A DNA stretch of 64,000 nt from Chlorobiota bacterium (GCA_016788565.1 JAEUSP010000101.1:3334-67333); one strand, 5' to 3'. Positions 21,774 to 24,616 are shown, counted from the first letter of the stretch. A program made the numbers and translations. Notes: a model not told the origin generated them from the letters alone.

Positions 21774-21837
21774 GTTGTTGATGTACGTCGGCGGTATTGA
21801 ATTACCGTCATGTTCTTTGAAATGCCGGGTGGAGAGA

Positions 21838-21990
21838 CTGTTCCTCGCTTTGAGCGGGGATGTCCCGTTATTCACTCAGTTTTCTGTGGTGAATCCAAAT
21901 CGTTCCTGGCATAAGCCGGGATGCTTCGATAAGGTGTTGATTTCATCATCAGCACATCAAGAGTTCCTCGCTCTGAGCGGGGAGTTTGAT
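21838..21990 (+). CRISPR. Cryptic type I-E-like mini-array (3 divergent repeats, 2 hairpin spacers) inside an inverted repeat
   Basis: Repeats ctgttcctcgctttgagcggggatgtcccg (21838-21867), tcgttcctggcataagccgggatgcttcg (21900-21928), gagttcctcgctctgagcggggagtttgat (21961-21990); both spacers 32 nt; flanking IR at 21817-21835 / 21993-22012. Confidence 0.7.
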
Positions 21991-22055
21991 AATCTCCACC
22001 CGGCCATTTCAACCCCACCACATCATGCGCCTGCTATTCTACCAATCCACAAGAC

Positions 22056-23708
22056 ATGATTATCACCAAAGCATATCGAACGGAAATTTATCCGACGGAT
22101 GAGCAGGCGATAGCATTCCGCAAGACCTGTGCGGCGGTGCGGTTTGTCTATAACTGGGCGTTGTGCCGCAAGATAGAAGCCTATCGGGATGAGGAAGCGA
22201 ACCCAGAGCTTGTAAAAGAACTTGGCGCGAAAGTCCGTGAACTAAAAAAGACGTTGAAGCTGATTACTCCTGACGAGGATGGGGGATTTGTCCACAAGAA
22301 AACAGGCGAAGTTCTCACCACTGAAAGCGTTGAGGAACTACGTCAATCTTTGCAGGAAACCCAGCAGGCAATGCAAGGCTTGAAGCCAAAATATCTTGGG
22401 CAATCAGACTTGCAAGGTCAAGAACTTGCGGCACTGAAAGAGAAAGAGCCGTGGTTAAAAGAAGTTCCCGGCATGGCATTGTTAGCAGCATTGCAAAACA
22501 ACGACAGGGCGTTTAAGCGATTTGGTGATATGGTGAAGAAGGAAGGTGCAAGACCGAGGGGAAAGCGATTGACCCGTCAGCCTGGTTTTTTGTACCGTTG
22601 GTTTGGCGCAGAGATGGTAGAAAGCGGCCAGATAGAGTATCCCAACCTTGAATACTATCCACGATTTCAAACTACACGGGATGGGCTGGGGGGCTTTAAG
22701 TTTTTCAGTGCCATTCGCGTAAAGCGACGTGAGATAAGGGTTCGCGGAATTGAGGGATATATTAAACTTGCCGAGGCGGATGCTATGCCGCTACCACCAC
22801 AGGATGCAGCTTGGATTGATGGGAAGGGCAAGAACGCTGGGATGTGGAAACAGGATGGAAGTTTTGAGTATCTCTCGCAAACACGTGAAGATAAATCGGA
22901 AGGACGGTTGCCAATAGGTCAGCGCAGATTTGCAAGCGGTGCGATTACTGAAGATCGGGGGCGATGGTATGTCTCGCTTACGTTCACCGAAGCCGTTCCA
23001 GACCTTCCGCCCCCCGATGGAGTTGATGTCCTTGCCGTGCATCTTGGATTGCAACGGCTGGCCACGTTTAGTGATGGATCGCACGTTCCTCGCCCAGCCC
23101 ACTATGAAGAGAATGAAAAACGGTTAGCAAGACTAAACCGCTCGTTAGCCCGTGGACGGGAGGAAGCAAAAAAGGTAGGGAGGCGTTGGAAGCAGTCGAA
23201 CGATTATCGTGAACGCCGAAAAGAAAAAGGAGACTTAGAGGCCCATATTGCAAACCAGCGAAAAGCATTTTCGCATGAACTCACGGCACGGATCACCTCT
23301 CAAAGACCGAAGATTCTTGTGCTACATGATTGGGGGATTCAGGGGATGATGCGAGATGATGGCAAGCGTGTTGTGAAGAAGAAAAAGAGCAATGGGGAAG
23401 AGGTCGAATACAGTTATCGCGTGAACTTAGCAAAGCCCATTTCCCATGCGGCATGGGGGATGCTGAATAACCAAATCAAGTACAAAGCTCAATGGCAGGG
23501 GATAGAAGTGGTCATCGCACCATCGGAGTTCGCCGTCACGCAACGTTGTTCTGCTTGTGGCGAACTCAATCAAGAGATGGGAAAGCCGAACCCGCCCGTG
23601 ATGTTCCAATGCCCGTGTGGGAATAAAATGCACAGGGATGATAATGCGGCGAAAAATCTATGGTGGTATGGCCACCAATATCTTGCTCAGACGACACCGA
23701 ATGAGTAA
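22056..23708 (+). CDS. tnpB: TnpB/Cas12f-like RNA-guided protein, predicted nuclease-dead
   Basis: N-terminal KAYRTEIYPT..Q...RFVYNWAL, WYVSL, RuvC-I VLAVHLGLQRLATFSDG (D>H), RuvC-II LVLHDW (E>H), Zn finger CSACG..CPCG, RuvC-III HRDDNAAKNL. Confidence 0.92.
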   Translation: MIITKAYRTEIYPTDEQAIAFRKTCAAVRFVYNWALCRKIEAYRDEEANPELVKELGAKVRELKKTLKLITPDEDGGFVHKKTGEVLTTESVEELRQSLQETQQAMQGLKPKYLGQSDLQGQELAALKEKEPWLKEVPGMALLAALQNNDRAFKRFGDMVKKEGARPRGKRLTRQPGFLYRWFGAEMVESGQIEYPNLEYYPRFQTTRDGLGGFKFFSAIRVKRREIRVRGIEGYIKLAEADAMPLPPQDAAWIDGKGKNAGMWKQDGSFEYLSQTREDKSEGRLPIGQRRFASGAITEDRGRWYVSLTFTEAVPDLPPPDGVDVLAVHLGLQRLATFSDGSHVPRPAHYEENEKRLARLNRSLARGREEAKKVGRRWKQSNDYRERRKEKGDLEAHIANQRKAFSHELTARITSQRPKILVLHDWGIQGMMRDDGKRVVKKKKSNGEEVEYSYRVNLAKPISHAAWGMLNNQIKYKAQWQGIEVVIAPSEFAVTQRCSACGELNQEMGKPNPPVMFQCPCGNKMHRDDNAAKNLWWYGHQYLAQTTPNE

Positions 23709-23719
23709 GTTGGAAAGTA

Positions 23720-23989
23720 TGAGTACCGGTCACAGCCAATAGGGTTCCCCTTGATGGCATAATCAGCCGGAATCTCGCTCTGCGTAAGCGGAGCAAAAGC
23801 CCCCCGGAGAGGCTAAGGTTCATGTCCAGAAATGGTGCAGGTGGGCCTCGATGAAGGGAGTCGGTGTTATGGGCAACCATAACAGGACTTAGGGAACTCT
23901 GTACTCTCAGAACGTTACGATGGGTTCGTACCGGCCAGAATCGCTCTTTGAAATGGACGGAATATGGCGATTGTAGAGCGATTTTAAGT
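23720..23989 (+). ncRNA. Putative omega-RNA/tracr-like scaffold and array leader
   Basis: Segments resembling IS605 right-end motifs (aagc..ccggagag; cctcgatgaagggag); GNRA-capped hairpins at 23777-23794 and 23865-23884; hairpin 23939-23983 just before repeat 1. Confidence 0.6.
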
Positions 23990-24616
23990 CTTCGTTCTGC
24001 GGGTGCGGGGATGATGGGTTGATAGGCAGCCGAGGCGCACTCTAAATTGTCTTCGTTCTGCGGGTGCGGGGATGATGGCGTACTCATCGGCAACGGCGGA
24101 GCGACGTTTACCTTCGTTCTGCGGGTGCGGGGATGATGGCAGACAGGCAGCTACAGACTACCAACGGCGGCGCTTCGTTCTGCGGGTGCGGGGATGATGG
24201 TGTTTCTGGCGATAGCGGAGGAGCTTCGGGGCTCTTCGTTCTGCGGGTGCGGGGATGATGGCATTGATAACGGAAAACGAGTTGCGCCAAGTTACTTCGT
24301 TCTGCGGGTGCGGGGATGATGGTGGTATGACCCTTGGCGGACACCATGCTGCCACCTTCGTTCTGCGGGGATGATGGCTACATCTACGTCGTCAATCGCC
24401 GCACCTTTGCCTTCGTTCTGCGGGTGCAGGGGATGATGGTCTCCTAAAAGTGAAGTGTGATCTGTTTTACTGCTTCGTTCTGCGGGTGCGGGGATGATGG
24501 CTACATCTACGTCGTCAATCGCCGCGCCTTTGCCTTCGTTCTGCGGGTGCGGGGATGATGGTGCAAGTTTCTCCTACTGAACCTCTCTTGTCTCCTTCGT
24601 TCTACGGGGATGATGG
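23990..24616 (+). CRISPR. CRISPR array, 11 repeats / 10 spacers, type I-E-like geometry
   Basis: Repeat CTTCGTTCTGCGGGTGCGGGGATGATGG (28 nt); all spacers 33 nt; repeats 7 and 11 carry a 6-nt deletion and repeat 8 a 1-nt insertion; degeneration at the distal end implies + orientation. Confidence 0.97.

Follow-up and report, generated by a model that had tools for sequence, protein, structure and literature searches.

A Probable Nuclease-Dead TnpB Beside a Hairpin-Less Type I-E-Derived CRISPR Array and a Cracr-Like Mini-Array in a Putative Prophage of a Chlorobiota Bacterium

Features of the Locus

The DNA considered here, referred to as the window, is a whole stretch of 64,000 nucleotides (nt) from a Chlorobiota bacterium (GCA_016788565.1, JAEUSP010000101.1), corresponding to bases 3334-67333 of contig C133 in a genome of 4.58 Mb and 137 contigs. 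Within a putative prophage in this window lie a structured element with a mini-array of hairpin repeats, a gene for a TnpB-fold protein of 550 amino acids (aa), a non-coding RNA region, and an array of CRISPR repeats (Table 1). The gene, the RNA, and the array apparently share one orientation, as the repeats read in the type I-E sense on the plus strand and a degenerate repeat stands at the far end. An earlier reading made by a model from the sequence (the original prediction) held that the protein is a nuclease-dead relative of TnpB and Cas12 that draws guides from the array to silence host genes or competing elements. That proposal is retained here tentatively, in modified form.

Table 1. 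Features of the locus, with positions counted from the first base of the window.
Feature	Position	Strand	Basis and remarks
Structured element holding the mini-array; outer inverted repeat TTGAAATGCCGGGTGGAGA / TCTCCACCCGGCCATTTCAA	21817-22012	+	Fold z -6.3; 0/200 shuffles as good
PsiR1 (U1), I-E-like hairpin repeat CTGTTCCTCGCTTTGAGCGGGGATGTCCCG	21838-21867	+	-13.7 kcal/mol, z -2.8; aligned to host repeat and host PsiR1
PsiS-A, 32-nt spacer	21868-21899	+	Appears to mimic host CreR-like spacer; matches host Cascade (cse1) promoter region
PsiR2 (U2), I-E-like hairpin; stem changed with pairing kept (CCTGGC/GCCGGG)	21900-21928	+	-12.5 kcal/mol, z -3.0
PsiS-B, second 32-nt spacer	21929-21960	+	Genome scan, no target found
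PsiR3 (U3), I-E-like hairpin repeat	21961-21990	+	-12.5 kcal/mol, z -2.3
TnpB-fold protein gene, 550 aa	22056-23708	+	Domain matches; RuvC H329/H424/D528; zinc ribbon C498, C501, C519, C521 intact; single-copy; no TnpA nearby
Non-coding RNA between gene and array; candidate guide scaffold, tracrRNA or leader	23725-23989	+ (strand inferred)	RNA contig starts; fold z -2.7
Candidate anti-repeat CTCTGTACTCTCAGAACG	23897-23914	+	Predicted pairing with repeat nt 4-21 (17 bp, 5 G-U) in the minimum-free-energy fold with repeat 1
Array of 11 repeats and 10 spacers; host I-E repeat with 5' stem arm swapped, no hairpin	23990-24616	+	Direct repeats, 61-nt spacing, alignment to host repeat
Spacer 1	24018-24050	+	26/33 to C112:688-720, a small mobile-element-like contig; 5' flank AA+G
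Spacer 7	24378-24410	+	Matches host giant-protein genes with type IX secretion system (T9SS) sorting tail
Spacer 9	24501-24533	+	Near-duplicate of spacer 7, one difference

A TnpB-Fold Protein Lacking Two Catalytic Residues

The gene product belongs to the TnpB/IS605 OrfB family, as it combines HTH_OrfB, OrfB_IS605 (RuvC), and zinc-ribbon domains with a TnpB fold, in agreement with the 550-aa TnpB-fold open reading frame (ORF) of the original prediction. Above-cut-off Pfam matches were obtained to HTH_OrfB_IS605, OrfB_IS605, and Cas12f1-like_TNB (the zinc ribbon), together with an NCBIfam match to guided_TnpB (3.5e-50). An AlphaFold2 model built on 24 sequences reached a mean predicted local distance difference test score (pLDDT) of 83.9; its best folds in a Foldseek comparison with the PDB were ISFba1 and ISDra2 TnpB (TMt 0.78-0.79), followed by LaTranC, Cas12p, Cas12m, and Cas12f. 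At 550 aa, with insertions in REC, WED, and RuvC, the protein far exceeds the ~370-450 aa of most relatives found.

The catalytic triad of RuvC is degraded. At the positions of D191, E278, and D361 of ISDra2 TnpB, the protein has H329, H424, and D528, of which H329 and D528 were mapped by phmmer alignments to ISDra2 TnpB, and H424 via the alignment of a closely related designed TnpB chain combined with MAFFT columns. Two residues of what would be an intact D-E-D triad are histidines, and D528 is kept. The product is therefore very probably a domesticated, nuclease-dead TnpB, as originally proposed. The tnpB-like gene is present as one copy in the genome, and the only match to a Y1 TnpA lies on another contig (C137), so the window is indeed free of TnpA, and neither a TnpA partner nor multiple copies mark the gene as part of a transposon.

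Close homologues, all of them metagenomic and drawn from 5.8 billion proteins, show BLASTP identities of 83, 78, and 59% (77% and 69-70% in other alignments), in addition to a fragment with 96% identity. Histidine at the first two RuvC sites and invariant zinc-ribbon cysteines are found in 4/4 close homologues; besides the protein itself, three full-length homologues (59-83% identity) have the same histidine pair and an intact zinc ribbon. A search of 1.84 billion representatives returned only 18 proteins at E ≤ 1e-30. Among the 24 best relatives aligned, 13 have histidine at RuvC-I, and only the four close homologues have it at RuvC-II as well. With two or more triad residues mutated and the change conserved in the clade, the protein is by definition TldR-like, that is, it resembles the nuclease-dead TnpBs described as TldRs.

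A wider metagenomic clade has the RuvC-I aspartate replaced by histidine ('VHLG') and the RuvC-II glutamate kept (P0027, P0028, P0029, P0031, P0032, P0035, P0036, P0006, and P0039, the last of which has Q). Several of these proteins carry glutamate at the third RuvC site, and none of the clade was found among 401 genomes of the phylum. Searches for the loci of relatives were carried out in several collections. With the protein as query, genome contigs yielded one ordinary TnpB (27% identity) and viral contigs no locus. An alignment of the four close homologues found no locus in metagenome contigs, nor did a P0027 query, and an alignment of the wider histidine clade recovered seven distant TnpBs (23-29% identity) from viral contigs. 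By tblastn against phages and plasmids, matches were found only below 30% identity. Comparison of the non-coding RNA downstream of the gene with the flanks of the distant TnpB loci gave no nhmmer match and only chance-level BLAST matches.

A Type I-E-Derived Array Without Its Hairpin

A complete-looking type I-E system is present elsewhere in the host genome. Its locus on contig C74 comprises cas3, cse1, cse2, cas7, cas5e, cas6e, and cas1e, with cas2 not detected in the one ORF tried, and the repeat of the two host arrays, one on C74 and one on C18, is CTGTTCCCCGCATGTGCGGGGATGATCCC. Neither cas1 nor cas6e was found on contig C133, consistent with the earlier statement that no cas genes lie nearby.

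The predicted array of 11 repeats with a 61-nt unit was confirmed. Eight repeats are identical 28-mers (CTTCGTTCTGCGGGTGCGGGGATGATGG); repeat 8 contains one extra A, and repeats 7 and 11 are 22 nt long, lacking one TGCGGG. All ten spacers measure 33 nt, and the seventh and ninth are the same but for a single base. The unit length is that of I-E arrays (~29 nt of repeat and ~32 nt of spacer), and the likeness to the two host arrays extends to GTTC and the identical 13-nt block GTGCGGGGATGAT in the repeat, AA+N flanks at the protospacers, and a degenerate repeat at the far end. Unlike the host arrays, the phage array has no hairpin, no host-like leader, and no adjacent cas genes. The type I-E origin assigned to the array in the original prediction is thus supported by the match to the host repeat and by AA+N flanks in 2/2 identifiable protospacer families.

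The repeats differ chiefly in the 5' arm of the stem. In the host this arm reads CCCGCA(TG), and in the phage repeat it has become TGCGGG, its complement, which turns the hairpin into a direct duplication, TGCGGG-TGCGGGG. Because the 5' stem arm is replaced by its own complement, the palindromic hairpin of Cas6e is gone. Folding energies are -15 kcal/mol (z -3.2) for the host repeat and -7.5 kcal/mol (z -1.2) for the phage repeat, which adopts an unrelated shape. The CCCCGC-N4-GCGGGG stem earlier ascribed to the main repeat belongs instead to the host arrays and, in diverged form, to the three upstream units. Processing by host Cas6e, which the original prediction had considered possible, is unlikely for a repeat of this kind, and the loss of the hairpin would put the array out of reach of both Cas6e and Cascade. 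The uniform hairpin-less repeat looks selected, and the identity of eight copies argues against random decay. The repeat occurs nowhere else in the genome; the array gave one chance-level match among phage and plasmid records, and patterns of the repeat and of U1/U3 had 0 matches in IMG/VR.

Population data were gathered with sampled words from a 2.9-kb stretch. This stretch was present at 0.99 of the sampled words in 14 runs (X1-X14) from eight studies (activated sludge, sludge, and biofilm; 2020-2025), where the sample kind was guessed for all 14 runs and 12 were flagged as possible sources. It was partly present in six RNA runs from four studies. The main array, about a fifth of the stretch so sampled, is essentially the same everywhere and is static. 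Ongoing spacer uptake through host Cas1-Cas2, on which the array had been supposed to rely, is not indicated by an array that is near-identical across these runs.

Targets of the Spacers

The best ungapped matches of spacers 1-10 in the genome cover 26, 23, 23, 25, 22, 23, 31, 22, 30, and 22 of 33 positions, as compared to a maximum of 24/33 for 40 shuffled spacers. Spacers 7 and 9 match three members of one family of giant proteins with a T9SS sorting tail: C130:130128 (31/33); a gene on C46 (29/33), where the first 18 nt match perfectly within a frame of 1808 codons; and C130:70245 (28/33) in a frame of 1707 codons. All of these matches are on the sense strand and mid-gene, and all three sites have a 5' flank of AA+C. 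The site matched by spacer 1 adjoins an ORF that resembles, by eye, an excisionase-type DNA binder.

The flank is defined here as the AA just before the match, with the first base of the 33-nt spacer as its third base. In this small sample, the flanks (AA+C at three sites, AA+G for spacer 1) fit the protospacer-adjacent motif (PAM) of type I-E systems, and the protospacers of the host's own I-E spacers are flanked by AAT and AAC. Since the protospacer flanks are I-E-like, the spacers of the main array were probably chosen by I-E machinery; they look as if taken up by it. A match of this quality to host genes should be autoimmune if the guides were loaded into host Cascade-Cas3, a danger that the loss of the repeat hairpin would remove. 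At the spacer 7 site, the end nearest the flank points toward the promoter, and pairing of the guide would be with the template strand, which is the orientation reported as effective for TldR roadblocks (Wiegand et al., bioRxiv 10.1101/2023.11.30.569447). The part of the original prediction that concerned the silencing of host genes gains from these results, as at least one guide matches host genes in a manner consistent with silencing and not with cutting.

Toward the right end of the phage-like region, at window positions 37509-42938 (+), there is a 1809-aa ORF with a T9SS sorting tail. A phage paralogue of the targeted host gene, as known for fliC-TldR, was considered and rejected: tblastn with the C46 protein at E ≤ 1e-10 did not find this ORF.

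The RNA Region Between Gene and Array

The gap between the ORF and the array (23709-23989) is 281 nt long and folds better than its shuffles (z-score -2.7, 2/200 shuffles as good), as expected from the earlier description of a ~280-nt structured region; with repeat 1 included, the z-score is -3.3 (0/200). No Rfam match was found for the RNA region at E ≤ 1. BLAST of the gap against the genome gave matches only at E 0.25-0.97, and the portion of the RNA just ahead of the array had none above chance. The possibility that the region copies the host I-E leader was rejected, as there is no likeness beyond AAGTCT, and leader-only alignments score 17-18, equal to the shuffle mean.

Evidence at the RNA level consists of Logan assembled contigs from four RNA runs of four studies, which carry no information on strand, ends, or processing and should not be ranked by depth. 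Contigs start at 23725 (X15), 23734 (X18), 23735 (X19, with adapter directly before), and 23777 (X17), that is, 17-27 nt (X17: 69 nt) after the stop codon of the TnpB-fold gene. Word depth is 21, 75, 90, and 218 for the contigs from 23725, 23734, 23735, or 23777 to 24017, 16-40 for array contigs, and 2.5-10.7 for the listed contigs of the ORF, which is partly covered in 4/4 RNA runs. One X18 contig (23734-24255) bridges the gap region and five repeats. No RNA contig was found over bins 19500-19967 and 25818-26500 that flank the locus, so the cover is not uniform carry-over of DNA; beyond this check, gaps in RNA cover were not read as silence. The contigs give a consistent hint of a well-represented RNA whose start lies shortly after the stop codon and which extends into the array, with the first spacer starting ~283 nt after the RNA start.

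A sigma-70 promoter scan found nothing upstream of 23725; a candidate for a -7 box of the Bacteroidota type, TAAGTTGG, was noted by eye at 23706-23713. The motif TCTTTGAAATG..CGG flanks the tnpB-like gene, at 21814-21830 in the outer arm of the upstream element and at 23942-23958 in the last hairpin before the array. By estimate, an 11-nt identity between the two sites is within chance at that distance.

A Probable Cracr-Type Element Upstream

The original prediction described a second mini-array upstream of the gene. Three I-E-like hairpin units at 61-nt spacing do lie there, starting at 21838, 21900, and 21961, but the element appears to mimic a host RNA that regulates Cas genes rather than to form part of a TnpB system. 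The stems of U1-U3 are kept through changed sequence (CCTCGC/GCGGGG in addition to the pair given in Table 1). RNA contigs cover just this element at 21818-22004 (X18) and 21797-22050 (X19, depth 61, as compared to 2-3 for the ORF contigs of X19).

In CreR autoregulation, a host crRNA-like RNA (a relative of CRISPR RNAs) guides Cascade to its own promoter. Between cas3 and cse1 of the host (C74:~20435-20545), a repeat-like hairpin and a second hairpin enclose a ~22-nt spacer, and a strong terminator follows. The spacer of this host mini-array has a 14/17 match with PAM AAC, located shortly after a promoter-like motif that precedes cse1, and the mini-array resembles an autoregulation circuit of the CreR type, here in a member of the Kapabacteria/Chlorobi group.

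The phage spacer PsiS-A has two matches within the 389-nt cas3-cse1 intergenic region of the host, and 0/2000 shuffles reach either match value. The first is to the CreR-like spacer itself, with 16/17 identities over the first 17 nt of PsiS-A. The second, at C74:20596-20627, has 22/32 identities and PAM AAC, with mismatches at 6, 12, 15, 19-21, and 27-30. Positions 1-5 and 7-11 of this match are paired and 6 and 12 are not; type I-E Cascade does not read every sixth position, such as 6 and 12, which are flipped out. The site is just downstream of TTGACT-N17-TATATT (by eye) and ~140 nt before the ATG of cse1. To the same promoter, the phage spacer thus has a 22/32 match, vs 14/17 for the host CreR-like RNA. 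Phage Cracr arrays are described as mimicking CreR and making Cascade repress its own operon, with I-E arrays of two or three spacers on prophages and at least nine PAM-proximal nt in common with the host CreR/CreA spacer (Liu et al., bioRxiv 10.1101/2024.10.29.618823). The present element has that PAM-proximal identity, hairpins like the host repeat on a phage-like contig without cas genes, and a partial cas promoter match with a PAM. With good confidence, it is therefore read as a type I-E Cracr mini-array. Its three hairpins would be processable by host Cas6e, and the resulting RNA would enter host Cascade and make it repress the host cas operon more tightly.

For PsiS-B, no target was found in the genome scan; its pattern in 21 family genomes stayed at the level of the backwards control, and two stretches in genome G001 are attributed to chance. 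The pattern of the first spacer had 13 matches in IMG/VR, none with repeat-like flanks. One IMG/VR viral contig (minus strand, near 2794 of the reverse complement) has 22 consecutive nt equal to the host CreR-like spacer and no repeat-like hairpin, which may be chance or a protospacer-like site.

A need for such an element can be read from the host arrays. Contig C122 joins the left end of C133 via a 141-nt overlap, and host I-E spacer 8 (C74 array) matches its far end, C122:7261-7292, at 32/32 with a 5' flank of AAT. This match to the adjoining phage contig indicates that the host lineage has met the phage or its neighbor; therefore, a CRISPR inhibitor would be useful to the phage. Spacer 8 also matches at 32/32 in C123:78-109 / 8006-8037, an 8-kb contig with terminal overlaps and transposase-like genes. 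Other host I-E spacers match C1, C123, and C99, and 0/37 match C133.

Interpretation of the Gene and Array

Taken together, the region is tentatively interpreted as an RNA-based counter-defense and regulatory locus of a prophage, consisting of two modules, in which the dead TnpB would use the disarmed array as a multi-guide DNA binder. Besides the Cracr-type element, the second module (22056-24616) would be a domesticated nuclease-dead TnpB with a ~255-nt RNA and an array captured from a I-E system. The downstream RNA would act as scaffold or trans-activating CRISPR RNA (tracrRNA) for the dead TnpB, and the array spacers would provide several fixed guides, with which the protein would bind target DNA uncut and block transcription. 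The duplicated guide would be aimed at the host genes for giant T9SS-sorted proteins and another guide at a second mobile element. Cooperation of the dead TnpB with the array and repression of the targets are inferred here, as are the strand of the RNA and its processing. A fuller scenario, in which the phage took a host I-E array, swapped the stem arm, and feeds the spacers to the dead TnpB as a natural multi-guide form of CRISPR interference (CRISPRi) while Cracr shuts down host Cascade, is possible but decidedly open to doubt. The same reserve applies to a further part of this reading, namely that capture of a foreign array represents a second route to a CRISPR-associated TnpB, as opposed to splitting of the transposon's own RNA.

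Several observations lead us to favor use of the array by the dead TnpB. Every characterized dead TnpB keeps an adjacent guide RNA, and the RNA and first spacer found here sit where the scaffold and 3' guide of a TnpB or Cas12 should be. The geometry of I-E systems is the same as that of TnpB and Cas12, with a 5' flank, a spacer seed at the 5' end, and the upstream repeat beside the guide. The uniform hairpin-less repeat appears to be under selection, and the duplicated self-matching guide is tolerated beside a complete-looking I-E system, in a stretch that is near-identical across 14 runs of eight studies, which fits a user that does not cut. Finally, spacer 7 is oriented in the way reported to block RNA polymerase for TldRs.

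A considerable number of points weigh on the other side. Known TldRs use a single fixed guide on a promoter, as described by Wiegand et al. (bioRxiv 10.1101/2023.11.30.569447), and the best match here is mid-gene. No close relative's locus was found in the genome, viral, or metagenome contig scans; in 30 other TnpB ORFs from 61 relatives and 401 phylum genomes, RuvC-I has aspartate in 30/30, and RuvC-II has glutamate in 29/30, the remaining one being truncated there. A TnpB-based system has no need of the 13 nt shared with the host repeat, which could simply be a trace of recent capture. Above-chance genome matches exist for only 3/10 spacers (two distinct sequences), and what the AA+N flanks reveal is the choice of the spacers by I-E machinery, not the flank that this TnpB would accept. 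The anti-repeat duplex, at -26.2 kcal/mol, is equaled in 45% of cases when the region is shuffled and in 42% when the repeat is, a level that chance alone gives with a repeat so rich in G. The RNA support, moreover, comes only from assembled contigs of the kind described above.

Some of these points are shared by the view that the two are chance neighbors: the dead TnpB would be a TldR-type regulator with a single guide of its own, which could form the 3' end of the 23725-23989 RNA or lie elsewhere, and the array a captured I-E passenger that lost its hairpin and has no user. Each TldR characterized so far relies on one adjacent guide (Wiegand et al., bioRxiv 10.1101/2023.11.30.569447), the anti-repeat pairing is not significant, the I-E-style flanks show that the spacers come from a I-E system, and a near-identical array would also fit an inert relic. 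This view is nevertheless unlikely, given that decay would scatter changes and eight repeats carry the identical hairpin-less variant, that RNA contigs from four studies extend over much of the array, that the RNA portion just ahead of the array, where a single guide could lie, has no above-chance genomic match, and that the duplicated self-matching spacer has been retained. It is decidedly improbable that the tnpB-like gene is a functionless, decaying IS605-family remnant beside RNA elements that alone matter. The absence of TnpA, the single copy, and the loss of two catalytic residues could be taken in this sense, but the frame is full length and open, the three further full-length homologues preserve both histidines and the zinc ribbon, the fold model is confident, and RNA contigs cover the gene in four runs.

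The array might alternatively act on the host CRISPR system itself. As an RNA anti-CRISPR alongside Cracr, with an unrelated TnpB-like gene, it would be transcribed abundantly into repeat look-alikes in which the 3' arm and 5'-handle part of the host repeat are preserved. These would titrate host Cas proteins, or else base-pair with the repeats of host precursor crRNA at their 5' arm and so disturb crRNA maturation. In E. coli I-E, the Cas6e cut and the start of the 5' handle fall within the segment to which the conserved GTGCGGGGATGAT block corresponds. One anti-CRISPR RNA module is already present at the locus, phage UGCGGGG could pair with host CCCCGCA (by hand), and the 32/32 match of host spacer 8 to the adjoining phage contig implies that the phage needs CRISPR inhibition. 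Described RNA anti-CRISPRs, however, keep the hairpin that Cas6 binds (PMC10651486; bioRxiv 10.1101/2024.10.29.618823), a decoy needs no unique spacers of a constant 33 nt with PAM-flanked protospacers, and no energy calculation speaks for the pairing, which makes this explanation improbable. Conversely, the array could serve the host Cascade-Cas3 of type I-E against competitors, in the manner of virus-borne mini-arrays. The 61-nt unit, the I-E-like flanks, and the complete-looking system available in trans would suit such a role, yet the Cas6e hairpin is absent from 11/11 repeats, the near-perfect PAM-flanked match to a host gene would be autoimmune, and the same phage appears to repress host Cascade; this possibility is extremely improbable. 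Use of the array by the dead TnpB thus remains the tentatively favored account.

Relation to Known Systems

The closest parallels to the protein are the TldRs described by Wiegand et al. (bioRxiv 10.1101/2023.11.30.569447). As in that account, a TnpB fold that has lost at least two RuvC residues is encoded by a temperate-phage-like element with no transposase partner, a non-coding RNA lies directly downstream, and a guide matches host genes in an orientation reported as effective for roadblocks. Unlike the TldRs of that account, which have one fixed guide of ~9-16 nt directed to a promoter, the RNA here is followed by an 11-repeat array whose best match is mid-gene, and the catalytic changes are D to H and E to H without a C-terminal truncation.

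Compact type V systems of the TranC kind resemble the locus in another respect. In the published description, a TnpB-like effector stands by a short array without adaptation genes, separated from it by a structured RNA of 100-300 nt, and occurs in phages (bioRxiv 10.64898/2026.03.27.714800); LaTranC structures are, as noted, among the fold matches of the 550-aa protein. TranC is described there as an active nuclease with repeats of 32-38 nt thought to come from splitting of transposon RNA, whereas RuvC is dead here, the 28-nt repeat derives from a host I-E repeat, and no anti-repeat reached significance. Among Cas12f relatives, inactivated miniature type V-like effectors have been reported near arrays, with array guides that match host genes and suggest transcriptional control (Hoffmann et al., Nature 2026, PMC13472631). 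Those effectors are described as having C-terminal truncations, in contrast to the present protein, which is closer to IS605-family TnpB and keeps its C-terminus.

Cas12k, Cas12m, and Cas12c share with the proposed mode of use RNA-guided DNA binding without cleavage and an association with CRISPR arrays. They are, however, much larger proteins of distinct Cas12 clades with repeat types of their own, and in the fold comparison Cas12m comes after TnpB. The partners of Cas12k are Tn7-like genes; none was seen among the ORFs scanned in the window, where no search aimed at such genes was made.

The upstream element has two spacers and three diverged hairpin repeats on a prophage, CreR-like spacer identity, and a 22-nt casA/cse1 promoter match that is discontinuous and has a PAM, all of which are features of the I-E Cracr arrays presented by Liu et al. 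(bioRxiv 10.1101/2024.10.29.618823). It differs in its host, a member of the Kapabacteria/Chlorobi group, in comparison to the Pseudomonadota, Bacillota, and Actinomycetota listed in that paper, and in its setting: a long outer inverted repeat encloses it, and the dead TnpB gene follows directly downstream. The term 'TnpB' is absent from the main text of the same paper (bioRxiv 10.1101/2024.10.29.618823).

Dead TnpBs (TldRs), TranC intermediates, dead Cas12f beside arrays, and Cracr arrays are all already in print. The combination of a dead TnpB, a hairpin-less array derived from a class 1 system of the host, and an adjacent Cracr element was not found in the literature searched. If the favored account is true, it joins the line of TldRs, with their single fixed guides, to that of TranC, with its active nucleases and own repeats. 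It would also provide a phage-borne, multi-guide system that does not cut, and a concrete case of array capture across CRISPR classes that bears on the origins of type V systems. The arm swap that destroys the hairpin would be a simple form of rewiring, and would explain how a PAM-flanked, self-matching spacer can be carried beside an intact Cascade-Cas3. The upstream element, for its part, would extend Cracr anti-CRISPR RNAs, and a hijacked host CreR circuit, to a Kapabacteria/Chlorobi-group bacterium. The stretch is present in many wastewater data sets (eight DNA studies and four RNA studies).

Genomic Setting and Neighboring Genes

The element around the TnpB-fold gene was originally described as a prophage, an assignment that is moderately supported. 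In or near the window, phage-type matches were obtained to tape-measure, holin-like, and tail-like proteins, a T4-type RNA ligase, an exonuclease, and DUF932, and chromosomal genes appear from ~44.8 kb of the window onward. For the host gene xseA, the closest named relatives carry the labels Chlorobi bacterium (84%) and Kapabacteria (57-59%). Most neighboring ORFs had no assignable family in the family scans, and no sigma factor or helix-turn-helix (HTH) partner was seen among the scanned neighbors of the TnpB-fold gene. The frame that matches tape-measure proteins continues from C122:1-1485 into window positions 1-2601 (~495 aa and then ~1,977 aa) and would be unusually long if it encodes a single protein.

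Directly after the array, at window positions 24748-25038 (+), there is an ORF of 96 aa with no Pfam or PHROG match, over which RNA contigs of depth 16-30 were found in two runs. Given where it lies, it may encode an anti-CRISPR-associated regulator or a small anti-defense protein.

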